Source: Chloroflexi bacterium B3_Chlor (lineage in GTDB: Bacteria > Chloroflexota > Anaerolineae > UBA7937 > B3-Chlor). Taken from it: a DNA stretch of 64,000 nt. Positions 3,374-16,533 of this stretch are shown here, piece by piece. Within the stretch, counting starts at the first letter, position 1, and each line of letters starts with the position of its first letter. Location of the stretch: NCBI GenBank assembly GCA_005223035.1, contig NJBK01000004.1, positions 40,577 through 104,576 of the forward strand, in the 5' to 3' direction. The notes beneath the pieces are model-generated. The model saw only the letters and a list, made by a program, of their open reading frames with translations, was not told where the DNA came from and did no database searches. The translations under genes were made by a program, and so were the position numbers.

Positions 3374-3627
3374 GGACCCAATTCGTTCGGCCTTAGAAGA
3401 TATCGTAATTCGAAGCCCGGCATCCAGTCGATGGGGAAGAGCCGCCGCCTGTGCTCTCTCAAACTCGCTATCGATTTCTGGGAGCGAAGGACAAAGTGCC
3501 ACGTGGTCGCTGAGGACGAAGGTGCAAGGATTGAGCGGGGATCAATTGCTGGAGCCAGTGACATGCGTCTTGTGGCTGTAGACACCGTTTGGCAAATCTG
3601 GTCACTGACTTGATGGGGATAGGAACC

Positions 3628-3999
3628 ATGAAGGAAGAACGGAGAAGAACCGCCCGTGTCCTCGTTGAGCATCTGGTATCTTATGTTGTCTTGGACGAGC
3701 GGGGAGGAACGGACGAGATGGGCATGGCGCGCACCCTGGACCTGAGTGAGGGAGGCATCGTGTTGGAGATGACGCATTCCCTTGATAGGGGCTCCCACCT
3801 TGAGATGAAGATGGTCAGTGGTGATCATATCCTGGAAGCCAGAGGGCTGGTTGTGTACAGCAAGTACCTACCTGACTACTTACCTGACAACCGTTGGCGC
3901 GTGGGCGTGTCCTTCACCGAGATCACTGAGGGCGATCTGGCCACAATCGCTCAGGAGGTTGAAGAGCGTCGTATGCAGGAGACCAGGGGAGATGCCTGA
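3628..3999 (+). CDS. PilZ domain c-di-GMP-binding protein
   Basis: N-terminal RxxxR motif (MKEERRRTARV) and the D-x-S-x-G-G motif (DLSEGG) diagnostic of PilZ. Alternative ATG at 3613; the ORF track starts at TTG 3589. The stop overlaps the next gene's ATG (ATGCCTGA). Confidence 0.7.
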   Translation: MKEERRRTARVLVEHLVSYVVLDERGGTDEMGMARTLDLSEGGIVLEMTHSLDRGSHLEMKMVSGDHILEARGLVVYSKYLPDYLPDNRWRVGVSFTEITEGDLATIAQEVEERRMQETRGDA

Positions 4000-4507
4000 G
4001 CAGAGAGTGAGTTTCAATGAGGAGCAACTTGAGAGGATGGAGGCCTGTCTTGAGAATCTGCTGACCAAGAGCAAAGGGGTGGCGGTTCTATTCGCCAGCG
4101 CCGAAGGTCAGCCATTTGGACAGGTGGGCAGCCTCAGTGATAAGGACAGGATGGCGCTATCCACCTTGGCTGCGGGTAGCTTCGCGGCCACTGTGGCCAT
4201 GGCCAAGTTGTTGGGACAGGCTGGAGCATTCCAGCAACTCTTCTTTGAGGGCCAGGAGCACAGTGTCTACTCCTCGGCTGTGGGTGAAGGGTCCCTTCTT
4301 ACCATCGCCTTCGGCAGCAGCGCAAAGCCTGGCTTGGTGAGACTCCTGGCCCGGGAAGCCACAAACGAGCTACTGGAGATCGTACGCGAGGCCCGGGAGC
4401 AAGGGATGGAACAGTCTGTTGAGGACCTAATACACGCTGAGTTCGGCGAGTCTTTGGCCGACGAACTGGATGCCCTATTCCCGGAGGGAGGGGAAGGTAT
4501 CGAGTAA
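3992..4507 (+). CDS. Roadblock/LC7 (MglB-like) domain protein
   Basis: MPEQRVSF start overlaps the PilZ stop. Roadblock-type alpha/beta core (GVAVLFASAEGQPFG...AAGSFAATVAMAK). Confidence 0.65.
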   Translation: MPEQRVSFNEEQLERMEACLENLLTKSKGVAVLFASAEGQPFGQVGSLSDKDRMALSTLAAGSFAATVAMAKLLGQAGAFQQLFFEGQEHSVYSSAVGEGSLLTIAFGSSAKPGLVRLLAREATNELLEIVREAREQGMEQSVEDLIHAEFGESLADELDALFPEGGEGIE

Positions 4508-4530: not shown

Positions 4531-4905
4531 ATGGCTGACGGTATCGACCGGCTGTTAGAGGAAACTCTGCGGGGGTTGCGACGGGTTTCGCCGTATGTGG
4601 TAGGTTCGGCGGTGGTTACGGGCGATGGATTTGTGGTCGCCTCTGAGCTACCCGATGAGAACTACGAGAAGAAGGTGACGGTGATGGCCATGGCCATGCT
4701 GACCATGGGGCAGGAGGCTACTGGTGAATTGGGTTCCAGCGATGTGGAGCGGGTCTTGGTGGAGAGCAAGGATAGCTACATCGTGATGGTCAACGCTGGC
4801 CCTGGCGCAATTCTGGCCGCTGTTGCGGAAAAGGAGATCATCTTGGGTCTGCTCTTTGTGGCCATCAAGGAGACAGTGGCCAAAGTCAACACACTGCTGT
4901 ACTGA
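4531..4905 (+). CDS. Roadblock/LC7 domain protein
   Basis: 124 aa. VVTGDGFVVAS...AMAMLTMGQEA pattern typical of Roadblock/LC7. Confidence 0.7.
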   Translation: MADGIDRLLEETLRGLRRVSPYVVGSAVVTGDGFVVASELPDENYEKKVTVMAMAMLTMGQEATGELGSSDVERVLVESKDSYIVMVNAGPGAILAAVAEKEIILGLLFVAIKETVAKVNTLLY

Positions 4906-4918
4906 GGTAAGAGGCCAT

Positions 4919-5329
4919 ATGATGGACGAGAGACCTGAAGGAGCTACGCGTACAGGCGAACCCACTCTAAACCGGATCTTGCGAGAGATGAACGATGAGG
5001 GGCATTTCAAAGCATCGGTCTTGGTCAGCACCGAGGGGTTGCCCCTCTCGTCCGCGTCTTCGCCCTTTGATACTGAAACAATGGCGGCTATGGTAGCCCT
5101 GGTCAAGAACACGATCCAGCAGGCCAGGGAGCATATCGGGTTGGATGAGATAGACGAGGTCTCCATCGTTCAAGGTGACAAGATGCGCCTGATATGCCGG
5201 TACCTCGTCGTCGGGGACGAAGAATTGATACTGTCTGTTATCGCCCCACCTCATCAGACCTACCGGCGCCTGACTAACCGGGCTCTTAGGGAGATCAAGC
5301 GCGTCTGGAGAAGGATCTACGTAGCTTAA
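4919..5329 (+). CDS. Roadblock/LC7 domain protein
   Basis: Starts at internal ATG (MMDERPE). ASVLVSTEGLPLSS...TMAAMVALVKN is Roadblock-like and paralogous to 8110-8493. Confidence 0.65.
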   Translation: MMDERPEGATRTGEPTLNRILREMNDEGHFKASVLVSTEGLPLSSASSPFDTETMAAMVALVKNTIQQAREHIGLDEIDEVSIVQGDKMRLICRYLVVGDEELILSVIAPPHQTYRRLTNRALREIKRVWRRIYVA

Positions 5330-5349
5330 CTCTGGGCCAGACTTACGAG

Positions 5350-5622
5350 TTGTTGGCGGGCGCTCGGATTGAGATCGCCAGCTTGGTCACCGGCGGAGAC
5401 CCCATTTTGACAGAACATCTGTTGATAGACCCGCCAGCCGCGGCCTGTGCGGGGCAGGGTTTGAATATCGAGAGGCCTCACTCATTCGCGGTTGTGCTGC
5501 TAAGATTGAAGGAGAAGGTGACGGGCACGCTGACTCCGATGAGCCGTGTATGCCACCAGTTCACCCCTCAAGACGTGGGACTACTGAGTTCCATCGGCAG
5601 CCAGATCCGGTTAGCCACGTAG
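5350..5622 (+). pseudogene. GAF-domain C-terminal remnant (no ATG start)
   Basis: The translation SFAVVLLRLKEKVTGTLT...FTPQDVGLLSSIGSQIRLA matches the C-terminal half of a GAF domain. The frame opens only with TTG, and the N-terminal half of the domain is absent. Confidence 0.3.
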
Positions 5623-5685: not shown

Positions 5686-7644
5686 GTGGACGAGCATTCA
5701 TCCACGTTGGATTTCCAGAAGGTGATAGAGCTGGTGCTCGACAAGGCGATGCAGGCCACAGATGCCTCGGCAGGGGCCATTGCCGTAGCTAACGAGGAGA
5801 GAACCGGGCTTCTCTTGCTCGCGCACCGGGGTTACCCTGGCCAGGCGGATGCCAAGAGACCCTGGCGGTGGCGCATCGGGACGGGAATAGTGGGAAGGGT
5901 AGTCAAAACGGGTGAACTCTCCCTGGTAAACGATGTCAGCCAAGACCCTGACTACGATGACTTTGTCCCGGAGACCCAGTCTCAACTCACTGTGCCCATC
6001 ATTAGAGAAAATGAGGTGGATGGGGCCATAGTCCTGGAGAGCCCCCGGCTGGCAGGTTTCAGTAGAGGGCAGACAGGCTTCGTTCAGCATCTGGCGGAGC
6101 ATGCGGCCGTGGTCATGGGCAACGCACGGTTGAGTCAGCGACTGATGGAGTCGGAGGAGAGATACCGCATCTACGTGGAGAACGTCCCCTGTGTCATCTG
6201 GGAGGCGGATACCGAGAGTCGCTTCACCTACTGCAGCCCTCAGATCGAGAAGTTGATAGGCTACACTGCTGAAGAACTAGTCGGACACACTCCATACGAG
6301 TTCTTGATACACGCCGATGACGCTGACAAGTTCAAAAAGAGAGTTCGCCAGATGTCAAGAGAAGGAAGAGACGAATACACCTTGCGCCACCGGGCATTGC
6401 ATAGAGATGGTTCCATCCTGCATATCGAGGTAGGCATCAAGCCGGTGTGGGATGACGCTGGCCGGGTGGTCAAGTATCGAGGCGCGGCGCGAGATGTGTC
6501 GCAGCTGGTTGAACTCCAGGCGCAACTCATCCAGTTGGCCAAGCTGTCGGGTATCGGCCAGATGATCTGTGGCGTGGCCCACGAACTGAACAACACTCTG
6601 ACTACGGTCATGGGATACTCGCAACTCCTCCAAGTCACCGATGTGGATGAGGACGTCAAGGAGGACTTGCAGAGGATCTATGACGATGCCTTGCGAGCGC
6701 AACGCATCGTGCAGAACCTCCTCACCTACGCCCGTCAGAAGAAGCCAGAGCACGGGCCGGTAGACATCAATGAAGTCATCGAACACACCCTGGCTCTCAG
6801 GAGGTATCAACTGAAGGTGGACGACGTGGAGGTCGTCACGGAACTGGCCGAGAACTTGCCCTGGACCATGGCCGACAGCTATCGACTGCAGCAGGTCTTT
6901 CTGAACATCACCAACAACGCCCACCAGGCAATCCTCCAGATGGGTAAGGGCGCCTTGACCGTAAGGAGCGAACTCCTGGGTGACGATACTATCCGCGTAA
7001 CCTTTGCCGATACCGGGCCGGGTATACCGCCAGAGGTACTGGACAAGATCTTCGATCCCTTCTTCACCACCAAAGATGTGGGCGCGGGCACCGGGTTGGG
7101 ATTGTCGGTCTCTCACGACATCATTCAGGAGCACGGCGGACGCATCTGGGCTGAGAGCGAGCCAGGCCAGGGAGCGACTTTCATTGTCGAGTTGCCCGTG
7201 AAAAGCTGGCTGCGGGACATAAGTGTACCTTCTCTTGATGAGGAGTATGAGGGGCTACCCTCCAAGAGGCAGAGGATATTGGTGGTGGATGATGAGCAGA
7301 ACATCGTGGACCTGATAGTGGAGGTGTTGAAGGACAGTGGGTATCTGGCTGATGGCGTCACCAGTGCCGAGCTAGCCCTGAGGCTGCTGCACCAGCACAG
7401 GTATGACCTGATCATCTCCGATGTCAAGATGCCCGGCATGGACGGCCCTACCTGCGAGAAAGAAGTGAGGGCGATGGATCCAGAGTTGGCTGAACGGATC
7501 ATCTTCGTCACCGGTGACCTCCTGAGCCCCACTACACAGGCGTTCCTGGAGGAACGGGGGGGACCGTGTCTCGAGAAGCCCTTCGAACTGGAGGAGTTGG
7601 CGAGCCTGCTGAGGAGGGCGCTGAGCGACGATGAGGAGCGCTAG
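5686..7644 (+). CDS. hybrid sensor histidine kinase (GAF-PAS-HisKA-HATPase_c-REC)
   Basis: H-box HELNNTLTTVMGYSQLL, G2 box GTGLGLSVSHDIIQEHGGRIWAESEPGQGATF, C-terminal receiver domain (RILVVDDEQNIV...DLIISDVKMPGMDG). Confidence 0.85.
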   Translation: MDEHSSTLDFQKVIELVLDKAMQATDASAGAIAVANEERTGLLLLAHRGYPGQADAKRPWRWRIGTGIVGRVVKTGELSLVNDVSQDPDYDDFVPETQSQLTVPIIRENEVDGAIVLESPRLAGFSRGQTGFVQHLAEHAAVVMGNARLSQRLMESEERYRIYVENVPCVIWEADTESRFTYCSPQIEKLIGYTAEELVGHTPYEFLIHADDADKFKKRVRQMSREGRDEYTLRHRALHRDGSILHIEVGIKPVWDDAGRVVKYRGAARDVSQLVELQAQLIQLAKLSGIGQMICGVAHELNNTLTTVMGYSQLLQVTDVDEDVKEDLQRIYDDALRAQRIVQNLLTYARQKKPEHGPVDINEVIEHTLALRRYQLKVDDVEVVTELAENLPWTMADSYRLQQVFLNITNNAHQAILQMGKGALTVRSELLGDDTIRVTFADTGPGIPPEVLDKIFDPFFTTKDVGAGTGLGLSVSHDIIQEHGGRIWAESEPGQGATFIVELPVKSWLRDISVPSLDEEYEGLPSKRQRILVVDDEQNIVDLIVEVLKDSGYLADGVTSAELALRLLHQHRYDLIISDVKMPGMDGPTCEKEVRAMDPELAERIIFVTGDLLSPTTQAFLEERGGPCLEKPFELEELASLLRRALSDDEER

Positions 7645-8109
7645 CTGCTCCTCCTTCGGGAATCGAGGGCCAGTTGCCCGAACAGCCTCGGCGACGCGGT
7701 GGCAAGAGGTAGTGTGATCTGGTCGGAGTGTCCCCGTAACTGCAAGGCATCCTTTCATTGGACAAACAGCACGGGAAAGGAGACATAGCATCGCCGAGAG
7801 AGATGTGGCGGACAACGCGTGTTGTGTCTCTATCAGAGTGTACTGATTGTAGCTCTCGGGCGATCCAAGGCTCATCGGACCGCTTTGTGATGCTTGAACC
7901 GCCGTTGAGATTGAAGCGCCCCATACTGCAGAACGCAGACGATGATCCAAGTGCGGCTCGGCGGTACCTCGTGGCGGAACTAGAGGACAGGCAGATAGGC
8001 CGGCAACGAAAGACGAGGACGGAGCCACCTTTCTCATAGCTCCGCGACGAAGGTGATGAGGTGCGCTGGCAAAGTTTGTGCCCGGGTGCCGGCTACTCAA
8101 GTTTGCAGG

Positions 8110-8493
8110 CTATGATCCTTCGACCATAGCGTGCCAGGCCAGCTTGAGATCCTTGATAGCTCGGTTGGTCAGTTGTCTATAGTAGCGTCGGTGGCTGGGC
8201 ACCACAACGGCCAGGATGAAATCCTCACCGTTCATGGTGAAGCAGCGGCAGACCAGCCGTATGTGATCGCTGGCCCTGACAGAGACCTCGTCAACCTGGG
8301 CCAATCCGACATGCTCCCGTGTCTCTCGTGCCACACGTCTCAGCAGGGCGACCATTGCAGATGTGGTATCAACGTCATAGTCGGAGGGCACTGTGGCGAT
8401 GGGTAGGCCATCACTGCTTGCGAGCACCGAAGCCTCGAAGTCACCTTCTTCGTTTATCCGCTCCAAAGCCTTTTCGAGAGGTCTGTCTGCCAT
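8110..8493 (-). CDS. Roadblock/LC7 domain protein
   Basis: 127 aa Roadblock-like (ASVLASSDGLPIAT...TSAMVALLRRV). Sits 5 nt after mglA on the minus strand. Confidence 0.7.
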   Translation of the reverse strand: MADRPLEKALERINEEGDFEASVLASSDGLPIATVPSDYDVDTTSAMVALLRRVARETREHVGLAQVDEVSVRASDHIRLVCRCFTMNGEDFILAVVVPSHRRYYRQLTNRAIKDLKLAWHAMVEGS

Positions 8494-8497
8494 TGGG

Positions 8498-9070
8498 CTA
8501 GATTCTGGATACCACCAGGTTGATTGCTGCTTTCAAGGTCTCTATCACCCCTACCCCCTCTGTCGCCACAGACTGGAACTGAGGGACGCCGTCGCGGGCC
8601 AGCTGCATCTGCAGAAGTGCAACGGGGGCTCTCGTTGGCAGATCTCGCTTGTTGTACTGCAGAACGAGGGGAAAATCGTGAAGACTCACCCCCAGTGCCC
8701 GCAGGTTCTCCTCCAGGCTGCGCATGGTGTCCATGTTTGCCTTGAGCCTATTGAGTTGAGAGTCGGCCACATAGACCACCCCGTCCGCACCCTGCAGAAC
8801 AAGTCTTCGGCTGGCCACATAGCATGGCTGGCCCGGCACAGTATAGAGATTGAACTTGGGCTTAAGTCCTCGGATTCGCCCCAGTTCCAATTGCATAAAA
8901 TCGAAGTACAAAGTGCGATCACCTCTGGTCTTGAGGCATATTAGCTCTCCTCTCTGCCTGGGATTGGTCCTGGAGTGAATGCACTGCAAGTTGGTGGTCT
9001 TGCCGCTGAGAGATGGGCCATAATACACAATCTTGAGGTTGATCTCACGCATTTTCCAGTTGATGAACAT
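8498..9070 (-). CDS. mglA: MglA-type Ras-like small GTPase
   Basis: P-loop GPSLSGKTT. Collinear full-length near-identity, from memory, to Myxococcus MglA: FINWKMREINLKIVYYGP, DRTLYFDF, YTVPGQ, VVYVADSQ, LQYNKRDLP. Confidence 0.9.
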   Translation of the reverse strand: MFINWKMREINLKIVYYGPSLSGKTTNLQCIHSRTNPRQRGELICLKTRGDRTLYFDFMQLELGRIRGLKPKFNLYTVPGQPCYVASRRLVLQGADGVVYVADSQLNRLKANMDTMRSLEENLRALGVSLHDFPLVLQYNKRDLPTRAPVALLQMQLARDGVPQFQSVATEGVGVIETLKAAINLVVSRI

Positions 9071-9106
9071 GGTGCCCCCTACGAAAAATGCGGTGATCCC
9101 TCTCTA

Positions 9107-9589
9107 TCAAGCAAAGGCCTCATCTAGCCCCTGAGCCAGTGCGCCGCGAAACTCTCGGTCCACCACGGCGCTGGCCTTCTCCAGCCACGGTTCCAGCTCG
9201 GAGGCCACTTCAAGGAGTTCGTTGACTGCCAGTCTGGCGAAGATGCGCACCAAGCCGATTTGCGTCATCTCATCAAAGATGATAGCCAGCAAGAAACTCG
9301 CACCAATGGCAGAGATGTAGATGTGACGTCTCTGTCCCTCGTGGAAGAGGTAGGAGAATGGGGCTGGCTCGTCCAACTGTCTGGCTATCTCGGCGGTAGC
9401 AGCCATGTTGCTGGCGGTCAGCGCGGCGAGAGCGGACGTATCCAACCCCTCGTTGTTTCCTTTCTCACTGATCAGCTGTCCGCTAATGTCCGCCAACAGG
9501 ACGCACAGGGCCCTACTTCTATTGAGCAACCTGTCGAGACAGTTCTCTATCTTGATAAAGGGCTCACGAGGGGGGATCAGAGTTTCCAT
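9107..9589 (-). CDS. mglB: MglB-type Roadblock/LC7 GTPase-activating protein
   Basis: Immediately upstream of mglA on the same strand. Shows the GQLIS, D-TSALAALTASNMAA, FHEG and GLVR blocks seen in MglB. Confidence 0.8.
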   Translation of the reverse strand: METLIPPREPFIKIENCLDRLLNRSRALCVLLADISGQLISEKGNNEGLDTSALAALTASNMAATAEIARQLDEPAPFSYLFHEGQRRHIYISAIGASFLLAIIFDEMTQIGLVRIFARLAVNELLEVASELEPWLEKASAVVDREFRGALAQGLDEAFA

Positions 9590-9615
9590 CTTCCGTTTTC
9601 CTCATCAGTGGCTTC

Positions 9616-10782
9616 CTACTCTTCAGGCAAATCGTACCAGCGTCTAGCCTCGCCAATCCTGGCCCTTGCCTGCCAGCGCAGGGACTTTGGTGCAGCCTCG
9701 ATGATCTCACTCAGCTGACGGGCCCTTGAGACATAGACTTCCTTCTCCCGCGCCGGGAGGAAATCATCTACCAGGTCGATGCTTTTCTCAATGTTCAAAG
9801 TAACGGTCCTATACCAACCCCAGTCGTCGCCGCACGTGGAGGCGATGAAGTCTGCGTCCACCTTATGTACATTGTCTCCTTTGCCCAACTCGTGATCGTA
9901 GAGAATGGCGTAGATGTCCCTCAAATCTTTCTCTCCCATCTGCACGATCTGCAGTTTCGACAAGAGCAAATCTGCCAATGGAAGGGTGATCTCGTGCAGC
10001 TCGAGGCGGTTGGTGAAGGACAGTTGGTGACACATATGAAAGGTGTCCACAAATACATCCAAGGCGACACCTTCTTGGGGATCTGAATACTTCAAGCGTT
10101 TATGTCCATGGAAGGCGTTGAAGCGGCGGTGGGGTTCGTATCCCAGAGTCTCTATCACTTCCTCCAACCCTCGCCGTTGCCTACCATATACGGCAAGATC
10201 AAGATCAAGCCCATCAGGCGGCAAGGTCATGTCAGCGGCGCTGGGACAGATCGCCTTGACGGCTATGCCTCCCAAGAGGCGCAAATGGACGCCTCGATTC
10301 TCAGCAGCAGCGATGGCCTGGCGGGCACGAGTAAGTAGCAGGTCGGCGGCATCGGCCGGGAGTTCCGGCTCAATCACGGCCACCTCTTCAGCCGCCGCTG
10401 GAGGAGCGCTTGGGACCGGGGCCTCTCTTTCTTTCAGGATTTCAGAGAGCTTCCTCGCAGCCACGTTGGCGGTGAGGTTCAGAAGAGGGACATTTACAGT
10501 ACGCACGCAGAGGATATAGAGGCAGCCAACACGCAAATTCTTGACCACCATCCTCCCTTCTCCGAATACCAGATCCAACTCGTGGACCCTGCGCCGCCTT
10601 GTGGTCTCCAGTCCGTCGATGGTTTGCAGAATCGTGCGTGCTGCTGGCAAGAACGTGGCCTCATCGAAGACAGACGGCAGAGCACGGGCCACTAACCTGC
10701 CTTCGGGGTCGCAAACGAACGATCCGGTTACCCCCACGACGGCATTGATGTCCTGCAGTATCTTTTCCATGGTCGCCCCCAA
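9616..10782 (-). CDS. Roadblock/LC7 domain fused to a pol-beta-superfamily nucleotidyltransferase (NTP_transf_5-like) domain
   Basis: N-terminal ~120 aa are Roadblock-like (INAVVGVTGSFVCDPEGRLVARAL). The C-terminal part carries LRLLGGIAVKAICPSAADMTLPPDGLDLDLAVY...LGYEP, matching the hG[GS]...DhDh nucleotidyltransferase signature. Confidence 0.6.
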   Translation of the reverse strand: MGATMEKILQDINAVVGVTGSFVCDPEGRLVARALPSVFDEATFLPAARTILQTIDGLETTRRRRVHELDLVFGEGRMVVKNLRVGCLYILCVRTVNVPLLNLTANVAARKLSEILKEREAPVPSAPPAAAEEVAVIEPELPADAADLLLTRARQAIAAAENRGVHLRLLGGIAVKAICPSAADMTLPPDGLDLDLAVYGRQRRGLEEVIETLGYEPHRRFNAFHGHKRLKYSDPQEGVALDVFVDTFHMCHQLSFTNRLELHEITLPLADLLLSKLQIVQMGEKDLRDIYAILYDHELGKGDNVHKVDADFIASTCGDDWGWYRTVTLNIEKSIDLVDDFLPAREKEVYVSRARQLSEIIEAAPKSLRWQARARIGEARRWYDLPEE

Positions 10783-10786
10783 GGAA

Positions 10787-11476
10787 CTAGCCCAAGATCG
10801 TGGCCGCTTCGGCGCTAACCAGGGCCGGTGAAGCTTTCTCGCTCAACGACAAACCTGCAAAAAAGGCTGGCCGTTCTAGGATAAGCATTCTGTCTTTACC
10901 CATGGTAACCAGCCCCCAGTCAAAGGGCGTGAGACTCATGGCATTCCCGAACTCGGCGGCCGCATTGCCCACGAAAACGGCCACAGCGCCCTCCTTTTCC
11001 GGGTTGCCGTCAATGTCACTTGCGAAAACGATGCCATCGCGTGAGATGATGACTGATCCCTCGACGCCCATTACGTTCTTGAGTTCGTGAGCCAGAGTCG
11101 CCATCTCATCCGCAGCTGCCGGCAATTCCATCGCAGGTGCAACCTCTGCCGGTCGCTCAACCGAAGCTTGCTCTTCGTCCATGCGGCGTATTCCCTCCAG
11201 AAGGAGGCTGTTCCAGCTGGTGGAGACCGTTCTCTCGGACGGTATTGTACCGGCCTCCACAACGAAGGAGCCATCGGGCCAGCTCAGGAGTTCGTAGACA
11301 GCCTCTTCACCCACCACATCCCCCACCGCGGCATGAACGATGGCTCCGTCGGCGAAACAGATGATTCCCGTCTTGCCCTGGTACGTCAGAGACACCGTGG
11401 CGGTGTTCATCTCGGTACAATTAATCTGAATTATGTTCGTGAGGCCTAGCTCTTTGAGGCTTCCTTCAACAGGCAC
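10787..11476 (-). CDS. DUF4388 (PATAN-type) domain fused to a Roadblock/LC7 domain
   Basis: The N-terminus GSLKELGLTNIIQ...GKTGIICFADGAIVHA...GEEAVYELLSWPDGSFVV matches the DUF4388 consensus. The C-terminal ~110 aa are Roadblock-like (VEGSVIISRDGIVFAS). Confidence 0.6.
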   Translation of the reverse strand: MPVEGSLKELGLTNIIQINCTEMNTATVSLTYQGKTGIICFADGAIVHAAVGDVVGEEAVYELLSWPDGSFVVEAGTIPSERTVSTSWNSLLLEGIRRMDEEQASVERPAEVAPAMELPAAADEMATLAHELKNVMGVEGSVIISRDGIVFASDIDGNPEKEGAVAVFVGNAAAEFGNAMSLTPFDWGLVTMGKDRMLILERPAFFAGLSLSEKASPALVSAEAATILG

Positions 11477-12082
11477 TTACGTCTTCCTTTCCTTGGGCTG
11501 CTGTCGACTTCTCTTGCGCCAGCGCATCAGGTCTCCTTTTTGCGGTTCACCCGATCTCCGACTCTGCATCGGGGGCCGGCTCCTTTCCTCGAAGACGTCG
11601 TCCAGCTCCTTACTCAGAGACGCCGCAAAGTCGGAAGCAAGGGTCTCTCTAGGCTTGGTGGTTTCTGTCTCGGCGACGATGCGCAAGAGATCCTGGATGC
11701 TTCTCTTGATGTAGAGCCAGACCATACCGATCTTTGGTGCATATGTTTGCCTGTCGAAAACGAGGACTAGAAAGAGACCGCTGGCGATGTTGGAGGCGTA
11801 TATGTCGTATCGTTCGCCTTCGTGGAACGTAAGGTTGAAGGTTCTACGTGTCTCATTCAGCTGACGTGACATCTCGGAGGTCGTGGCGAAGCTGGCAGCC
11901 AAGAGGGAGACGATGGTGGTGATGTCCAAGTTCGCAGCACTCCCGGCCTGCGCGATGATCTGACCCATCGTATCCACCATAACCACGGCGGCAGCGTCAG
12001 CTTCGACAAGAAGCTCTCTTAGTCTTCTGGTAATGGCCTCCAGATATTCGCCTGAAAGAGATGAAACCCTTTTCTGCGCCAT
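11477..12082 (-). CDS. Roadblock/LC7 domain protein with basic C-terminal tail
   Basis: AAVVMVDTMGQIIAQAG...TTIVSLLAASFATTSE is Roadblock-like. First gene after the internal promoter at 12223-12251. Confidence 0.6.
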   Translation of the reverse strand: MAQKRVSSLSGEYLEAITRRLRELLVEADAAAVVMVDTMGQIIAQAGSAANLDITTIVSLLAASFATTSEMSRQLNETRRTFNLTFHEGERYDIYASNIASGLFLVLVFDRQTYAPKIGMVWLYIKRSIQDLLRIVAETETTKPRETLASDFAASLSKELDDVFEERSRPPMQSRRSGEPQKGDLMRWRKRSRQQPKERKT

Positions 12083-12222
12083 CTGCTTGTCTCCGCGGTA
12101 GATCGGAGGACGAAAAAGCCAGCCTTGTTTTCTTCAGCCCGACCCGAGCTGACCACTCAATTCGCTGCTCCCCCGGCAGCACATGGCATGCGGTCGCTTG
12201 AATCTGAGGGCTTCCAAACCAC

Positions 12223-12251
12223 AGTATACCACATTTCTAAGGGTATGTCAA
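12223..12251 (-). promoter_or_regulatory. sigma70-like promoter TTGACA-N17-TATACT, read on the minus strand
   Basis: Plus-strand tgtcaa at 12246-12251 and agtata at 12223-12228 are separated by exactly 17 nt. Lies about 140 nt upstream of the Roadblock gene that starts at 12082. Confidence 0.5.
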
Positions 12252-12311
12252 TATCACCTGCCTTACTTGAGACGCGGGGCATCTCCTTTGTCACCCCCGA
12301 AGGCGTTCAGG

Positions 12312-14126
12312 CTAGCCAGCACCTCTGGAGTCAGCGGGTAAGCGTACAGTAAAGGTCGAGCCTTCGCCCACCTCACTCTTGACTTCTATCCTCCCGCCAT
12401 GTCTTTCAACGATACCGTGGCTTATGGAGAGGCCTAGGCCTGTACCCCTTGCCTTAGTGGTATGGAAGGGGTCAAAGATGTTGGCCAGATCCGACACCGG
12501 GATCCCCTCTCCAGTATCGGTGAAGCTGATGCTTGCTTCACCACGTTTGTCATCCCAAACAGTGTCTATGTACAGGTCACCACCTTCGGGCATTGCTTCA
12601 ACAGCGTTGATAATGATGTTGAGAAATACTTGCTTGAGGAGACTGCTGAGGCCGTTCACCAGGGGCAATCGCGAGGTCGCGTGTCGATGCACCACTACCT
12701 GCGCGTGTTGGATTCTCTTTCCAGCCAGAGACAGAACATCGTCGAGAATGGCCTGGATATCTACTGGTGCCACGCTCTCCGTGGAGGGCCGATAGAAATC
12801 CAGTATGCGTTGCACCAGATCAATGAGTCTTTGGACCTCTTCTTGTGCCATGGAGAGATAATCCTGCCGTCTGCTCTCATCCAGGGAGGGCTTGTGAGTG
12901 ACCAGATGCAGACAGTTATGAATCGCCTGCAAGGGGTTGTTGATCTCATGAGCCAAGGAAGCAGCTAGCTTCCCGGTGGCGGCCAACTTCTCGGCCCTTA
13001 CGAGTTGGATCTGGGACTTCTCCAACTCGCGGGTGAACTCGGCAAGCTCAGTGTAGAGGCGAGCATTCTCCAGCGCGACGGCGACCGTAGCCGCCATGGA
13101 GTTCAACAGCTCCAGGTCTTCGTGAGTGAATTCCCCATCCAGTTTATTGACGAGTTCAATGGCTCCGATAATGTGGTCTTTGATCACCAGGGGTACGCAC
13201 AGGACGGAGCGGCACTCCAGGCCAAACTTCTCACTGGCTTCTCGATAATGGCGCGGGTCAGCACTCACCTCAGGAACCAGGACAGGTTCTCCCTCCTTGA
13301 CCACCCACCCAGCGATCCCTTGTCCTACCTGGAGCTTCAGCGGCGCGGTTTGTCGCACATCACCGTGCAGACTCATGCGAAAGACGAGTTCGTTCGTGGT
13401 TTCGTCAAATAGCAGGAGGGAGCCAGCCTCGGCCCTCACAATCTCATTGATACCCAGCATAGCCAGGCGAAGCACTTCATCGAGGTCAAGTGTGGAAATC
13501 ACGACTCGCCCCAGTTCATTCAGTGCAGCCAGTTGGCTGGTTCTGTTCTTGGTTGCCTCGTGGATGCGGGAGTTCTCGATGGCGATGGCAACTTGACCGG
13601 CCAAGACGGAGAGGAGTTCTAGATCATGGTCGCGGAAAGGGGAATCGGGGGTAGTCTTGCTGGCGTTCAGCACCCCGATGATTCGTCCTTTGATCTTGAG
13701 CGGCACACAGAGGGCGGAGGCCACGTCCTCTCGGTGCATGGCTTCGCGTACGCTAGGCTCAACCGGGGCGTCATCGGTTAGTAGCAAAGGCTCTCCGTTC
13801 TCGATCACCCAGCCAGATATTCCTTCCCCAATCTTCGCCTTGGCGGAACCTATGACCGCTTTGGGCAGCCCTACAGCAGCCTCGACGCATAGCTCTTGCT
13901 TCTTCTCATCCAACAACATGAGGGAAACCACATCAGCGCCGGTCTCTCGCTCAACGATCTCGAGGATGAGTTCGTAGAGGCGTTCAATCTCCACCTCGGA
14001 CAGTAGCGTCTCGCTGACCTCGAGGAGAGGCAGGAGAGCCCCAAGGCGCTCCCCATTCCGATACGGAGCCTGGACGTCTGGGATGTTCATGGTGGACATA
14101 ATCATCCTCCATTGGTATTCTATCAT
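12312..14126 (-). CDS. sensor histidine kinase (GAF-GAF-HisKA-HATPase_c)
   Basis: Two GAF-like regions, H-box HEINNPLQAIHNCLHL, G2 box GTGLGLSISHGIVERHGGRIEVKSEVGEGSTF. Alternative start at M10 (14099) with GGAGG 6 nt upstream; M1 has GAGGAAG 6 nt upstream. Confidence 0.85.
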   Translation of the reverse strand: MIEYQWRMIMSTMNIPDVQAPYRNGERLGALLPLLEVSETLLSEVEIERLYELILEIVERETGADVVSLMLLDEKKQELCVEAAVGLPKAVIGSAKAKIGEGISGWVIENGEPLLLTDDAPVEPSVREAMHREDVASALCVPLKIKGRIIGVLNASKTTPDSPFRDHDLELLSVLAGQVAIAIENSRIHEATKNRTSQLAALNELGRVVISTLDLDEVLRLAMLGINEIVRAEAGSLLLFDETTNELVFRMSLHGDVRQTAPLKLQVGQGIAGWVVKEGEPVLVPEVSADPRHYREASEKFGLECRSVLCVPLVIKDHIIGAIELVNKLDGEFTHEDLELLNSMAATVAVALENARLYTELAEFTRELEKSQIQLVRAEKLAATGKLAASLAHEINNPLQAIHNCLHLVTHKPSLDESRRQDYLSMAQEEVQRLIDLVQRILDFYRPSTESVAPVDIQAILDDVLSLAGKRIQHAQVVVHRHATSRLPLVNGLSSLLKQVFLNIIINAVEAMPEGGDLYIDTVWDDKRGEASISFTDTGEGIPVSDLANIFDPFHTTKARGTGLGLSISHGIVERHGGRIEVKSEVGEGSTFTVRLPADSRGAG

Positions 14127-14180: not shown

Positions 14181-14307
14181 TGCGAGGGCCGTGGCTTCCC
14201 CATCGAAGGACCGGCTCGGGAACCTTTTGGTGGCTTTCTGCGTCTTGTAGTCGAAAGAGATCTAAGTGGGCCACAGGACCCCGACGCAAACTGAGAGGAG
14301 GCGAAAG

Positions 14308-16533
14308 ATGAAATCGAAAATGCTGCTCATAGTCCTCGTGCTTGCGGGGCTGCTTCTCTCCACTGGCGGAGCGGCTTACGCAGATGGTGTGGTAATAATC
14401 GAACCTCCGCCTGGTGTACCGCCCCCTGACACCCCCAATCTGGTCGTCAAGTACCATCGGGTCTCGGTGGATATCAGCGATCAGGTCGCGACGACCGAAG
14501 TGGATCAAGTCTTCCTCAATGATACTCGCTACGATCTGGAAGGGATCTACATCTTTCCCTTGCCTGAGGAAGCGGCCGTCTCGGAGTTCGCAATGTATGT
14601 GGATGGTGAAAGATGGGAAGGGGAGATCCTACCTCGCGACGAGGCGCGCAGGATATATGAGGACATCGTGCGCCGCCGCCTCGATCCGGCTCTTCTGGAA
14701 TATGTGGGGCGTGATACCTTCAAGGCCAGCATATTCCCCATCGAGCAGGGCGATGAACGCAGGGTGGAATTGACGTACAGCCAAGTATTGGAGAACGACG
14801 GAGGGCTGATCAAGTATGTCTATCCCCTGGACACCGAGCGTTTCTCTGCACGCCCCCTGGAAGAGGTAGTAATCACAGTACGAGTTCACTCCGCACAGCC
14901 GATTAGGGCCATCTATTCTCCCAGCCACGACGTTGCCATAGACCGCGTAGATGAGCACACGGTTAATGTCAGTTTTGAGGCCGCGAATGTCCTTCCCGAC
15001 CGCGATTTCGAACTATACTACACCGTCTCCGACGACGATTTCGGGTTGAACCTCCTCAGCTACCGGGAGCGTGGAGGGGATGGCTTCTTTTTGCTGCTGG
15101 TCGCGCCCAAGGTCGAGGTGGACGAGAGGGATGTGGTAGCCAAAGATCTGATTTTCGTCCTTGATACCTCTGGGAGCATGGAGGGAGAAAAGATAGCTCA
15201 GGCCAAAGATGCTCTGGAGTTCATCCTCGACCATCTGAACCCCGAGGACCGCTTCAACATCGTGGCTTTCAGCACAGGTGTGAGGACCTACGCTAGAGGG
15301 CTACAACGCGCGGCGGAAGGCGATGACGCCCGCAGGTTCATCGACGATTTGCGTGCCGTCGGCGGGACAAACATAGACCTTGCGCTGGCCGAGGCTCTGG
15401 CCATGGCCGACGGTGAGCGCCCGCAGATCATCATCTTTCTGACCGATGGCTTGCCCACCGAGGGAGTCACCGATACCGATAGGATTATCGCCAACGTGAG
15501 CCGGCAGGCTTCAGAGAACATCAGGATCTTCGCCTTCGGCCTGGGCGATGATGTAAACACCTTCTTGTTGGATACCATCGCGCAGGACAACCGGGGAGTC
15601 AGTTCCTACGTGCGCCCTCGTGAGAGCATAGAGGAGGAGGTGTCCACTTTCTACGCCACGGTGAGTATGCCTTTGCTGGCGGACATAGACTTGGACTTCG
15701 GCGACCTGCGGGTCGAAGATACCTATCCCTATCCTCTACCCGACCTGTTTGCGGGCACCCAGCTGGTTGTGGCTGGCCGCTACCGGGAAGGGGGCAGGAC
15801 GGACATCATCCTGCGCGGCGAGGTGAACGGAGAAGAGCAAGAGTTCGTGTATGAGAACCTCCGCTTCAGCGATAGAGGTGGTGAGACCTTCATCCCTCGG
15901 CTGTGGGCCACGCGGAAGATAGGGTACCTCCTCAATCAGATAAGGTTGCACGGTGAGGGGCGGGAGTTGATCGACGAGATCGTGGATCTGAGTGTGCGGT
16001 ACGGAATCATGACCCCGTACACCTCCTTCCTGGTTGAGGAAGAGCAAGACATCTTCACCCCTGAGGGGCGAGAGGAAGCGGCCACGGAGATGTGGCATCA
16101 AGCCACGGCCGTCCCCGCGCCGATGGTCGGTGCCGGGGCGGTACAGGACGCCGAGAACCGAGAGGCGCTACGTTCGTCTGAGAAGGTGCAGGACAACACC
16201 GAGCAGATCAAGTACGCCAGGGACAAGGTATTCGTCCTGCGGGATGGCATCTGGACCGACACCACCTATGATGGCTCCACTGAAACGGTGAAGGTGGGCT
16301 TCGGCAGCGATGACTACTTCGCCTTGTTGGGGACCCACGCGGGGTGGGGGCACTACTTCTCCGTGGGGCAGCAAGTGATCGTAGTGCTAAACGGAGTGGC
16401 CTACCAGGTGTCTGAGGGCGACTATCCCTCGATAGACATGCCGGCCACGCCGCCTTCCCCAGATACGGTTCTTACCCCGTGGGACCTACTCGTAGAGCTA
16501 GTGCAATGGCTGTTGAGCCTGCTGCCCGGATAG
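14308..16533 (+). CDS. secreted VIT (vault/inter-alpha-trypsin) plus von Willebrand factor A domain protein
   Basis: ATG 14308 with GGAGG 6 nt upstream. Signal peptide MKSKMLLIVLVLAGLLLSTGGAAYA. MIDAS motif LDTSGSM. The ORF track starts at an upstream GTG (14266). Confidence 0.8.
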   Translation: MKSKMLLIVLVLAGLLLSTGGAAYADGVVIIEPPPGVPPPDTPNLVVKYHRVSVDISDQVATTEVDQVFLNDTRYDLEGIYIFPLPEEAAVSEFAMYVDGERWEGEILPRDEARRIYEDIVRRRLDPALLEYVGRDTFKASIFPIEQGDERRVELTYSQVLENDGGLIKYVYPLDTERFSARPLEEVVITVRVHSAQPIRAIYSPSHDVAIDRVDEHTVNVSFEAANVLPDRDFELYYTVSDDDFGLNLLSYRERGGDGFFLLLVAPKVEVDERDVVAKDLIFVLDTSGSMEGEKIAQAKDALEFILDHLNPEDRFNIVAFSTGVRTYARGLQRAAEGDDARRFIDDLRAVGGTNIDLALAEALAMADGERPQIIIFLTDGLPTEGVTDTDRIIANVSRQASENIRIFAFGLGDDVNTFLLDTIAQDNRGVSSYVRPRESIEEEVSTFYATVSMPLLADIDLDFGDLRVEDTYPYPLPDLFAGTQLVVAGRYREGGRTDIILRGEVNGEEQEFVYENLRFSDRGGETFIPRLWATRKIGYLLNQIRLHGEGRELIDEIVDLSVRYGIMTPYTSFLVEEEQDIFTPEGREEAATEMWHQATAVPAPMVGAGAVQDAENREALRSSEKVQDNTEQIKYARDKVFVLRDGIWTDTTYDGSTETVKVGFGSDDYFALLGTHAGWGHYFSVGQQVIVVLNGVAYQVSEGDYPSIDMPATPPSPDTVLTPWDLLVELVQWLLSLLPG

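Follow-up and report, generated by a model that had tools for sequence, protein, structure and literature searches.

What does a bacterium do with eight Roadblock-domain proteins encoded close to a single MglA-family GTPase? The question is raised by a 64,000-nucleotide stretch of DNA (the window) from MAG B3_Chlor, an uncultured Chloroflexota bacterium of the Anaerolineae lineage. One Group-1 MglA and exactly eight Roadblock-domain open reading frames (ORFs) are present, all at 3.9-12.1 kb of the window. On balance, the region is probably a conserved small-GTPase signaling locus, in which accessory Roadblock adaptors link an MglA/MglB switch to kinase, c-di-GMP, and PATAN partners.

The core of the locus is a minus-strand operon of six genes encoding, in order, R201, a PATAN-Roadblock fusion, a Roadblock-nucleotidyltransferase (NTase) fusion called RNT, MglB, MglA, and a small Roadblock protein (Table 1). 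Pfam and NCBIfam profiles together with homology searches bore out this gene order and the domain calls of a preliminary description of the DNA. That description had also placed a histidine kinase gene in the same contiguous run, with gaps of 0-36 nt. Such spacing is found among the six genes, whose gaps read from the sequence are 0, 16, 26, 36, and 4 nt from 12082 to 8110, but not at the kinase gene HK604, which is located 229 nt upstream. The gap contains a promoter-like site that matches the consensus at 11 of 12 positions, has an extended -10, and is the top match within 3.4-14.4 kb. Its hexamers and TG are invariant in the window and in the relatives L002, L085, L086, and L087, in which the flanks have diverged. 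The pattern also occurs upstream of an R201 homolog in L099, L155, and L158, which brings the total to eight sequences. Because of this invariant site in the gap, HK604 is probably a conserved neighbor transcribed separately from the six-gene operon, which apparently has a promoter of its own. An alignment and consensus fold of the eight sequences place a hairpin (GGYCAGCU...GGCUGRYC) followed by a U-run in the leader; its pairs are mostly invariant or altered on one side only, and the leader had no Rfam match. The terminator-like hairpin downstream of the operon has a weak T-run and was called from the consensus scan alone.

Table 1. Features of the MglA locus, with positions counted from the first nucleotide of the window.
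Feature	Position	Strand	Basis
PilZ-domain protein, first gene of plus-strand block	3616..3999	+	Pfam
R172, third MglB-type Roadblock protein	3989..4507	+	Pfam, NCBIfam
R124, small Roadblock protein, class B	4531..4905	+	Pfam, clustering
R136, small class C Roadblock protein, R127 paralog	4919..5329	+	Pfam
GAF-domain C-terminal part ending at in-frame TAG	5332..5622	+	Pfam, translation
HK652, GAF-PAS-HisKA-HATPase-REC hybrid kinase	5686..7644	+	Pfam
Terminator-like hairpin, downstream of operon	8019..8045	-	Consensus scan
R127, small class C Roadblock protein, directly 3' of mglA	8110..8493	-	Pfam
MglA, Group-1 Ras-like GTPase, 190 aa	8498..9070	-	Homology, motifs
MglB (MglB160), cognate Roadblock-type GAP candidate, 160 aa	9107..9589	-	Homology
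RNT, Roadblock-nucleotidyltransferase-fold fusion, 384 aa counted from ATG at 10770	9616..10770	-	
PATAN (DUF4388)-Roadblock fusion, 229 aa	10787..11476	-	
R201, second MglB-type Roadblock protein, 201 aa	11477..12082	-	Pfam, NCBIfam
Conserved 5' leader with hairpin	12083..12222	-	Alignment, consensus fold
Sigma-70-type promoter-like site, TTGACA-17-TG-TATACT	12223..12251	-	Consensus match, conservation
HK604, soluble GAF-GAF-HisKA-HATPase histidine kinase, 604 aa	12312..14126	-	Pfam domains

The Roadblock assignments hold up in profile and fold tests. An iterated local Roadblock HMM matched the eight ORFs and nothing else in the 64 kb; because the HMM was seeded with window sequences, only the absence of further matches is informative. 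Pfam Roadblock scores were 38.4 bits for MglB160, 28.5 for R127, 37 for R172, 52.3 for R124, and 27.3 for R136, and R201, at 23.0 bits with Robl_LC7, just reached the cut-off. The NCBIfam MglB model NF052242 scored R201, MglB160, and R172 at 59.9, 68.4, and 54 bits, respectively, and R201 and R172 are 33% and 39% identical to MglB160. R201 has a C-terminus consisting of an ELDxxF segment and a basic tail. Apart from its orthologs in L001 and L002, the Roadblock portions of REC-Roadblock(-HATPase) proteins in L006 and L041 resemble it most. R124 clusters with the N-terminal domain of RNT in class B. R127 and R136 are 44% identical, and relatives of their class C were found in 17 of the sampled sources from several phyla, mostly directly 3' of mglA. 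Classes B and C did not strictly co-occur across loci in the clustering, so specific heterodimer pairings are guesses.

Does a single MglA stand at the center of all eight domains? The preliminary description had pictured it so. The count of eight is correct, but the design was overstated, because the plus-strand Roadblock triple, one member each of classes A, B, and C, belongs in L086 and L087 to a second operon, of which it is the 3' end. The second operon also contains two MglA paralogs, MglB, PilZ, a HisKA_3 kinase, a HAMP sensor, and PATAN proteins. In the window its MglA paralogs are absent, and the block is followed by a hybrid kinase that is truncated at its 5' end and has a TAG in frame. 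Judged by this comparison, the plus-strand block (PilZ, MglB-like, Roadblock, Roadblock) is a truncated remnant of a second MglA operon, which relatives have kept intact.

Two plus-strand features had been overlooked, the PilZ gene and an in-frame GAF fragment that precedes the hybrid kinase and ends at a TAG. The PilZ protein scores 39.6 bits in Pfam (cut-off 22.5), and its translation contains the motifs RxxxR (RRTAR) and DxSxxG (DLSEGG). Its gene overlaps the start of R172 by 11 nt, and the protein is 58% identical to the PilZ of L087, which stands between MglA-3 and the R172 ortholog. The GAF fragment covers only positions 66-134 of the GAF_2 profile, is in frame with 5686-7644, and reads ...IRLAT*NARL..., with the TAG located where GAF domains usually end ENARL. 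A tblastn query with the L087 kinase aligns straight through this stop. The alignment and frame indicate that the fragment is what is left of the 5' end of the HK652 gene that follows. HK652 is absent at the corresponding position in L085-L087 (in L087, the R136-type gene converges directly on the R126-type gene, and nothing is encoded between the two), and no L002 ORF appeared in its blastp match list. The second cluster varies among relatives as well, as the 6 kb downstream in L002 do not contain it and, in L085, Roadblock and V4R repeats take its place.

A truncated block, a kinase with an in-frame stop, and a variable second cluster are what would be expected if the extra Roadblocks were duplicated, partly decaying copies without a distinct role, and their number reflected local duplication or rearrangement. 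This explanation is very unlikely, given that the gene order, gene lengths, and uninterrupted frames of the six-gene operon are all preserved in relatives whose orthologous proteins are 64-96% identical to those of the window. Furthermore, the paralogs fall into distinct classes, each conserved across phyla, and even in the remnant R172, R124, and R136 are intact and 67%, 79%, and 75% identical to their L087 orthologs.

The genes are co-conserved with mglA in related genomes. The order R201, PATAN-Roadblock, Roadblock-NTase, MglB, MglA, Roadblock is identical in L001, L002, L085, L086, and L087, and it is kept in all examined relatives with Roadblock-NTase proteins 64-91% identical. A corresponding gene set occurs in L081 (40% identity, rearranged) and in L083 (56%), where a 419-aa REC-Roadblock protein takes the position of R201. 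How unusual is such a multiplicity of Roadblock genes? Roadblock ORFs were counted at 43 species-representative mglA loci flanked by at least 4 kb on each side; 0, 1, 2, 3, 4, and 5 of them were present at 11, 9, 9, 7, 6, and 1 loci, respectively. The view that MglA systems normally carry one MglB is thus too strong, since at least two Roadblock ORFs are present at 23 of the 43. RomY, which had been offered as a second MglB, is not a Roadblock protein or paralog (PMC9481161); the second Roadblock of Myxococcus is MglC. Roadblock is also often fused to REC, TPR, PATAN, or HATPase. REC-Roadblock, REC-Roadblock-HATPase, TPR-Roadblock, and PATAN-Roadblock proteins occur in other Anaerolineae, Ignavibacteria, and Planctomycetota, and a Calditrichota operon encodes PAS-HK, REC, PATAN-Roadblock, Roadblock, sCache-HAMP, MglB, and MglA. 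The architecture had been called distinctive and probably uncharacterized. Literature searches yielded no description or experimental study of it.

The switch itself resembles well-studied ones. The window MglA matches M. xanthus MglA with an E-value of 1.4e-63 and has all Group-1 motifs, namely the P-loop GPSLSGKTT, Arg-Thr in G2 (DRTLYFDF), TVPGQ, and NKRD. The mglB gene is directly upstream of mglA, and its product matches the MglB proteins of M. xanthus (9.5e-23) and Thermus (1.5e-11). A close known system is the Myxococcus polarity module (MglA, MglB, MglC, RomR/RomX, RomY, and the PilZ proteins PlpA and PixA). Like the window, the MglA/MglB systems of Myxococcus and Thermus thermophilus have a Group-1 MglA that supplies its own Arg finger and contains TVPGQ, with an MglB-type Roadblock encoded next to it, one or more further Roadblock paralogs, and PilZ proteins and phosphorelay components as partners. 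However, the mglA operon of Myxococcus contains one Roadblock gene (mglB) compared to five here, the window Roadblocks are fused to PATAN and an NTase fold, and partner genes that are dispersed in Myxococcus (PMC4316618) lie beside mglA here. RomR, RomX, and RomY had no match among the Pfam and NCBIfam results for the operon proteins, and the small class C Roadblock did not match MglC in a profile search. Heteromeric Roadblock complexes are a general theme in GTPase regulators (PMC9481161). Ragulator-Rag (LAMTOR2-5 with the Rag C-terminal domains) has nothing evidently homologous beyond the shared fold and, unlike Rag, the window MglA has no Roadblock domain of its own.

PATAN genes near mglA/mglB are an occasional feature that has already been reported (PMC4316618), having been noted by Makarova 2006 and Wuichet 2014, and PATAN serves as an output domain, with PilB and PilC as its binding partners (bioRxiv 10.1101/2021.06.11.447907). 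The DUF4388/PATAN domain of the window (75 bits) is shared with PatA-type cyanobacterial regulators but is fused to Roadblock rather than REC. Its gene immediately precedes the Roadblock-NTase gene in all relatives examined, and the RNT gene lies inside an mglA operon, beside the PATAN gene, in every context examined (40-91% identity). The RNT family comprises >490 protein clusters, and its organism-named members are all Chloroflexi or Anaerolineae.

What could a nucleotidyltransferase do in such an operon? One idea is that RNT uses its Roadblock domain to dock onto MglA (or one of its Roadblock partners) so that the NTase can AMPylate, nucleotidylylate, or phosphorylate this target, thereby locking or resetting the switch. 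An analogy is provided by Legionella DrrA, whose NTase-fold domain AMPylates Rab1. The constant genomic position of RNT is consistent with this idea, as is its predicted structure of two confident domains joined by a flexible 20-residue linker. The NTase motifs (hGG, DxD, and third Asp) are all present, H248, N218, and F217 are invariant in an alignment of 39 family members, and an unusual Pro-Cys follows the catalytic Gln of MglA in this type of operon. On the other hand, D189, the first catalytic Asp, is Ile in 8 of the 39 members, so catalysis may not be what the family conserves, and D191 is Asn in 4. The NTP_transf_5 match falls under the Pfam cut-off, a substrate cannot be inferred, and L083 pairs RNT with an MglA that has an ordinary GQVIY. 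Most homologs of the NTase domain (1951 clusters at 50% identity) are standalone proteins of ~250 aa, and no Roadblock genes were next to them in the two contexts with examinable neighbors. Covalent modification of the switch is unlikely. The D189 substitutions and the standalone homologs also count against the favored adaptor reading. The NTase fold of RNT is of the Pol-beta type, and its nearest known counterparts are the minimal NTases of that type (ANT(2''), LnuA, MenT1, TglT, and NTP_transf_5). These differ from the window domain, which scores below the cut-off, is Roadblock-fused, and is encoded in a GTPase operon. That the gene is a MenT/AbiEii-type toxin-antitoxin or anti-phage element inserted in the operon by chance is scarcely credible. 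None of the operon proteins was matched by PADLOC, there is no evident antitoxin-like partner, and both the covalent fusion and the position beside the PATAN gene in every relative examined argue against it.

HK604 has GAF_2, HisKA, and HATPase_c domains (157, 43.5, and 95.5 bits in Pfam) and an H-box, HEINNP, at H393, but no transmembrane segment. Orthologs are directly upstream of the operon in L002 and L085-L087, separated from it by about 210-233 nt, and in L085-L087 the kinase is preceded by a divergently oriented VIT-VWA gene. HK604 is not adjacent to the operon in L081 or L083. This and its probable separate transcription count against the adaptor reading. A kinase next to Roadblocks and a GTPase also recalls the conservons (CvnA-D; Mfp), which are composed of a histidine kinase, Roadblock, and MglA-family GTPase (PMC4316618; PMC13343842). 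Like them, the locus co-encodes these components with no obvious response-regulator output. It might form a kinase-coupled G-protein complex that controls gene expression, development, or stress physiology and not polarity or motility. Kinases do recur beside operons of this type, L035 combines REC, Roadblock, and HATPase in a single polypeptide, and in L087 the HisKA_3 kinase is located between two mglA paralogs. In addition, no type IV pilus or gliding genes were found in the 64 kb, which speaks against the adaptor reading. However, conservons have a Group 2 GTPase (CvnD type) and one Roadblock, whereas the window has a Group 1 MglA (Arg finger, TVPGQ) and several Roadblocks in a Chloroflexota host. 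A Pfam search found no CvnC/DUF742 homolog, the soluble GAF-GAF kinase lacks a HAMP domain and the LPxR motif, the conserved promoter-like site parts it from the operon, and the presence of PATAN and PilZ partners suggests a role in pili or polarity. The conservon-like cascade and its output are, taken together, a modest possibility.

How would an MglA/MglB switch with accessory adaptors operate? By homology, MglA would cycle between GTP and GDP with its own Arg finger and Gln, and the MglB160 dimer would be the GAP platform. Because Roadblock domains act as dimeric GTPase platforms, the remaining modules may also bind this MglA, or may form pairs among themselves, and the accessory proteins would serve as adaptors between the switch and its inputs and outputs. 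Phosphorelay input could come from the neighboring GAF-GAF kinase, and R201-like proteins in relatives carry REC or REC plus HATPase; a REC domain is absent from every operon protein in this genome, which counts against the reading. The PilZ protein of the convergent operon may provide c-di-GMP input, and the Roadblock-tethered nucleotidyltransferase may add a nucleotide-dependent step. To judge solely by what MglA, PATAN, and PilZ proteins do elsewhere, the locus likely controls cell polarity, surface motility, or some similar spatial process. Since the operon recurs in every related genome examined and no study of it was found, the locus appears to be a small-GTPase control system more elaborate than those so far studied in bacteria.

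The core operon consists of six minus-strand genes. They encode the 201-aa Roadblock protein R201, a fusion of a PATAN (DUF4388) domain with a Roadblock-like domain (PATAN-Robl), a Roadblock-nucleotidyltransferase fusion (RNT), MglB (MglB160), MglA, and the 127-aa Roadblock protein R127. These genes are separated by 0, 16, 26, 36, and 4 nt, in that order. The preliminary description extended gaps of 0-36 nt to the adjacent kinase gene, which it counted as the first gene of the operon. The spacing is correct for R201 to R127, but the kinase HK604 lies 229 nt upstream of R201. The gap contains the best sigma-70-like site of the region (TTGACA-17-TG-TATACT), whose hexamers are invariant in five aligned sequences; the sequence upstream of the site has diverged. 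A metagenome scan with this promoter pattern gave at least 120 matching stretches, and three new loci among the matches listed (contigs L099, L155, and L158) also carry an R201 homologue downstream of it. On this evidence, the six genes most likely form their own transcription unit, with HK604 probably transcribed apart from them. In other words, the kinase is a conserved neighbor rather than an operon member.

Features of the mgl region, in positions of the window
Feature	Position	Strand	Evidence
HK604, GAF-GAF-HisKA-HATPase kinase	12312-14126	-	ORF listing and translation, Pfam/NCBIfam
R201, 201-aa Roadblock protein	11477-12082	-	ORF listing and translation, Pfam/NCBIfam
PATAN-Robl, DUF4388 protein with Roadblock-like C-terminal domain	10787-11476	-	Pfam/NCBIfam
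RNT, 384 aa, weak NTP_transf_5 match	9616-10770	-	Pfam/NCBIfam
MglB (MglB160)	9107-9589	-	Pfam/NCBIfam and similarity to M. xanthus MglB
MglA, 190 aa	8498-9070	-	Similarity to M. xanthus MglA and motifs
R127, 127-aa Roadblock protein	8110-8493	-	Pfam
PilZ gene	3616-3999	+	Pfam PF07238, 39.6 bits; overlaps R172 start by 11 nt
R172, Roadblock	3989-4507	+	Pfam
R124, Roadblock	4531-4905	+	Pfam
R136, Roadblock	4919-5329	+	Pfam
GAF domain, C-terminal part, ending in TAG	5332-5622	+	Pfam and translation
HK652, GAF-PAS-HisKA-HATPase-REC	5686-7644	+	Pfam

Downstream of the promoter-like site runs a conserved leader of ~140 nt (12083-12251, minus strand, site included), and both are found in the window, in L002, L085, L086, and L087, and in the three contigs from the scan. 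The leader contains a terminator-like hairpin (GGYCAGCU...GGCUGRYC), to which a U-run is attached, and another hairpin in which the ribosome-binding region may take part. A known riboswitch was considered, but the leader has no Rfam match at E up to 1. Covariation in the alignment of eight leader sequences is almost nil. The leader could function as an attenuator, or it could represent a cis-regulatory RNA of an unknown type.

MglA and MglB constitute the main model of bacterial polarity control by a small GTPase. The window MglA is a single-domain protein that aligns with M. xanthus MglA at E 1.4e-63, with the P-loop GPSLSGKTT (GxxxxGK[ST]) and the G4 motif NKRD ([NT]KxD) in place. It has an arginine beside the G2 threonine (DRTLYFDF) and a G3 motif in LYTVPGQPCY (TVPGQ). 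An intrinsic arginine next to the G2 threonine together with TVPGQ defines Group 1 MglA proteins (Wuichet & Sogaard-Andersen 2014, PMC4316618). The protein is thus by its motifs an unambiguous Group 1 MglA, for which GTP binding and MglB-stimulated hydrolysis are predicted. Its switch II sequence TVPGQPCY, with Pro-Cys after the catalytic Gln, is shared with the MglA proteins of L001, L002, and L085-L087. L081 has GQPMY, and nearly all of ~90 other MglA sequences have GQ[VI]xY. The Pro-Cys variant correlates incompletely with the Roadblock-nucleotidyltransferase gene, since L083 carries the gene but has GQVIY. As a separate observation, raw mglA ORF lengths reach 350-550 aa in many loci of Ignavibacteria, Zixibacteria, Acidobacteriota, Fibrobacteria, and Planctomycetota (L037, L046, L051, L058, L062, L064, L071, and L080), which suggests that MglA is fused there to a further domain.

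The mglB gene ends 36 nt upstream of mglA, and its product matches M. xanthus MglB at E 9.5e-23 and Thermus MglB at E 1.5e-11. It scores 68 bits against the NCBIfam equivalog NF052242 (cut-off 200 bits), and for this reason MglB160 is assigned to the MglB family without being called an equivalog. NCBIfam gives sub-threshold MglB matches for all three MglB-type proteins of the window, namely MglB160, R201, and R172. Each has an (E)LDxxF segment in a C-terminal extension, which may correspond to the C-terminal, MglA-contacting helix of M. xanthus MglB; the PDB alignment spans residues 6-133 only. Taken together, the sequences point to a Group 1 MglA switch with an adjacent MglB-type protein whose GAP role is assigned by homology.

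How many Roadblock domains accompany this switch? The count of eight made from the sequence alone holds. Six proteins reach the Pfam gathering cut-off of 23 bits for PF03259 (Roadblock/LC7): R127 (28.5 bits), MglB160 (38.4), R201 (23.0), R172 (37.0), R124 (52.3), and R136 (27.3). The C-terminal domain of PATAN-Robl (20.2 bits) and the N-terminal domain of RNT (no match) fail in Pfam, but both have the Roadblock fold in a structure test. An iterated local Roadblock HMM recovered the same eight ORFs and none other in the 64 kb. When 147 Roadblock domains (those of the window and of the first 80 related loci) were compared all against all by BLAST and clustered, the eight window domains fell into four classes. 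Class A is MglB-type and contains MglB160, R201, and R172 (31-39% identical); class B contains the RNT N-terminal domain and R124; class C contains R127 and R136 (44% identical); and class D contains the C-terminal domain of PATAN-Robl. By this assignment, the plus-strand genes R172, R124, and R136 supply one member each of A, B, and C, and they mirror the main operon, where the order is B, A, MglA, C.

Two further readings of the small Roadblock proteins were considered. A 264-aa ORF in L086 resembled a fusion of R124 with R136, and such a fusion would argue for a class B-class C heterodimer. However, only residues 1-86 match R124 and the next ~50 match neither parent, so the ORF is probably a frameshift and the fusion was rejected; classes B and C also show no strict co-occurrence across loci. 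Equivalence of R127-type proteins with MglC is not supported either: a 19-sequence profile of the small Roadblock after mglA matches Roadblocks of the Asgard and dynein types, gives a weak hit to MglB, and gives none to MglC.

The plus-strand Roadblock genes belong to a second block. The PilZ gene at its head was absent from the gene list of the preliminary description. The PilZ protein has RxxxR (RRTAR) and DxSxxG (DLSEGG) motifs, making it a putative c-di-GMP receptor. Downstream of R136, a GAF fragment is cut off by a TAG at the very point where GAF domains usually have ENARL, and it is in frame with the gene for the hybrid kinase HK652. The partial GAF domain and in-frame TAG indicate that HK652 is 5'-truncated and interrupted, or misassembled; the gene may be a pseudogene or split, or the interruption may stem from faulty assembly. 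The truncated kinase is absent at the corresponding position in L085-L087. L086 and L087 have a far larger convergent cluster, which encodes, in order, REC-PATAN, DUF2226, a class B Roadblock, a PATAN-HTH-like protein, a 4HB-HAMP sensor, MglB-2, MglA-2, a HisKA_3 kinase, MglA-3, PilZ, and orthologues of R172, R124, and R136. These two loci contain 10-11 Roadblock domains and three MglA paralogues in ~13 kb. All that the window retains of this cluster is the tail from PilZ to R136, after which comes the truncated kinase. Eight Roadblock domains around one MglA is therefore right as a count but not as a single design, part of the set coming from a truncated second operon. The second cluster is located at about 12.8-21.2 kb in L086 and L087. 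The equivalent region of L085 (13-21 kb) has repeated Roadblock and V4R gene pairs around an aldehyde:ferredoxin oxidoreductase, and the L085 stretch also contains 10-11 Roadblock domains. No second cluster was found within 6 kb in L002.

By an MglA scan of species-representative genomes, the window belongs to Chloroflexota/Anaerolineales, and one of its proteins is 100% identical to CEE40_02005 of Chloroflexi bacterium B3_Chlor. Are the genes conserved together with mglA? The order of the six genes is identical in L001, L002, L085, L086, and L087, and the GAF-GAF kinase is found at the same spacing in L002 and L085-L087. L081 (40% identity) keeps MglB, MglA, Roadblock, PATAN-Roadblock, and Roadblock-nucleotidyltransferase genes, and L083 (56% identity) keeps the gene set with a 419-aa REC-Roadblock protein in the R201 position. 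Loss of co-conservation, which had been named as the outcome that would count against the locus, was thus not observed. Divergent from HK604 lies a gene for a VIT-VWA protein with an N-terminal hydrophobic segment (14266-16533, plus strand), whose position is kept in L085, L086, and L087.

Multiple Roadblock genes near mglA are not peculiar to this lineage. For 43 species-level mglA loci whose sequence extends 4 kb or more in both directions, 0, 1, 2, 3, 4, and 5 Roadblock ORFs occur within 4 kb in 11, 9, 9, 7, 6, and 1 loci, respectively. The earlier premise that one MglB per system is normal goes too far, as 23 of the 43 loci have two or more Roadblock ORFs; the window, with eight, does exceed them all. 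Multi-Roadblock mglA operons also occur in Calditrichota, Ignavibacteria, Zixibacteria, Planctomycetota, and Desulfomonilaceae, with Roadblock fusions to REC, TPR, PATAN, and HATPase domains among them. One Calditrichota operon encodes PAS-HK, REC, PATAN-Roadblock, Roadblock, sCache-HAMP, MglB, and MglA. In a published survey, no more than two MglB genes were coupled to one MglA, and PATAN neighbors were seen only now and then (PMC4316618); our literature search found no paper on the larger operons or on the Roadblock-nucleotidyltransferase fusion. The locus is real, conserved, and apparently unstudied, but Roadblock expansion and PATAN linkage near mglA had been partly anticipated in published work.

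In another Chloroflexota locus, L035, two protoglobin genes (12337-13547) directly follow MglA, Roadblock, Roadblock, and PATAN-Roadblock genes, a hint that the input may come from the sensing of gas or redox state. A cNMP-binding protein also adjoins the mglA cluster of L035; the window encodes a 697-aa protein (26560-28653, minus strand) with two cyclic-nucleotide-binding domains and a bacterial PH domain, a parallel that may be coincidence. No pilus or gliding genes were found in the 64-kb window.

One new component of the locus is the Roadblock-tethered nucleotidyltransferase. RNT scores 21.8 bits against PF14907 (NTP_transf_5; cut-off 31.2), and it has a nucleotidyltransferase fold with the motifs hG[GS], DxD, and a third carboxylate, complete in the window protein as G167-G168, D189-x-D191, and D238/D242. 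Across 39 family members, residue 189 varies and is not always acidic (Asp in 19, Glu in 7, Ile in 8), and residue 191 also varies (Asp in 30, Glu in 4, Asn in 4), whereas H248, N218, and F217 are invariant. In all, 493 homologues of the fusion were detected, and most of the 120 listed are full length. By itself, the nucleotidyltransferase domain matches 1951 clusters (50% identity), the majority being standalone proteins of ~250 aa. Four contexts of standalone homologues were retrieved (contigs of 1.4-4 kb), and the neighbors examined in two of them included no Roadblock gene and none that suggested a function. A defense or toxin element was rejected, as PADLOC models matched no operon protein. 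In PATAN-Robl, the PATAN domain is PF14332 (75.2 bits), the DUF4388 family equated with PATAN (bioRxiv 10.1101/2021.06.11.447907).

The closest parallel to the locus in its working is the MglA-MglB module of Myxococcus and Thermus, here with putative adaptors added. In composition the locus is similar to the actinobacterial conservon (CvnA-D), but it lacks the features that define conservons. The conservon GTPase CvnD is Group 2 whereas the window MglA is Group 1; the conservon has CvnC/DUF742, for which the window has no Pfam match; and the conservon kinase is a membrane HAMP protein with a C-terminal LPxR, whereas HK604 has no transmembrane segment, HAMP, or LPxR. Conservon membership was rejected on these grounds. 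PATAN-Robl shares PATAN with PatA-type (PATAN-REC) regulators, but its C-terminal domain is Roadblock-like, with no Pfam Response_reg match, and no core-operon protein of the window carries a receiver domain. The resemblance to Ragulator-Rag is limited to fold and the number of Roadblock subunits: the Rag GTPase carries its own C-terminal Roadblock domain, unlike the window MglA, and joins heterodimeric Roadblock subunits in a complex.

What would the other Roadblock modules do? They may serve as dimeric platforms that act on the same MglA switch or on each other and would couple the switch to inputs and outputs. Several observations point to this adaptor role: the strict co-conservation of the genes, the occurrence in relatives of R201-type proteins fused to REC and HATPase domains, the function of PATAN in cyanobacteria as an output domain that binds PilB/PilC (bioRxiv 10.1101/2021.06.11.447907), and the link of PilZ proteins with the localization of MglA and MglB in Myxococcus. 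A bolder proposal, which we consider quite unlikely, is that the proteins of these Anaerolineae operons assemble a multi-subunit Roadblock platform that parallels Ragulator in function, in which the Roadblock-borne nucleotidyltransferase covalently modifies MglA or a partner. If true, bacteria would themselves be using GTPase nucleotidylylation as an endogenous regulatory layer, joined to histidine-kinase, c-di-GMP (PilZ), and PATAN signaling.

Pairs of Roadblock proteins and GTPases are thought to be the ancestral core of Ragulator, GATOR, TRAPP, and Mon1-Ccz1, the multi-subunit regulators of eukaryotes (PMC9481161). The locus and its relatives show that bacteria themselves built elaborate Roadblock sets, with five Roadblock genes sharing one operon with mglA and with PATAN, REC, TPR, HATPase, and a nucleotidyltransferase fold as fusion partners. 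The carrier organisms are uncultured. With its defined and conserved set of genes, the locus lends itself to asking how one GTPase is shared among several Roadblock modules, how signals from phosphorelay and c-di-GMP reach a G-protein switch, and whether a Roadblock-tethered nucleotidyltransferase modifies that switch.
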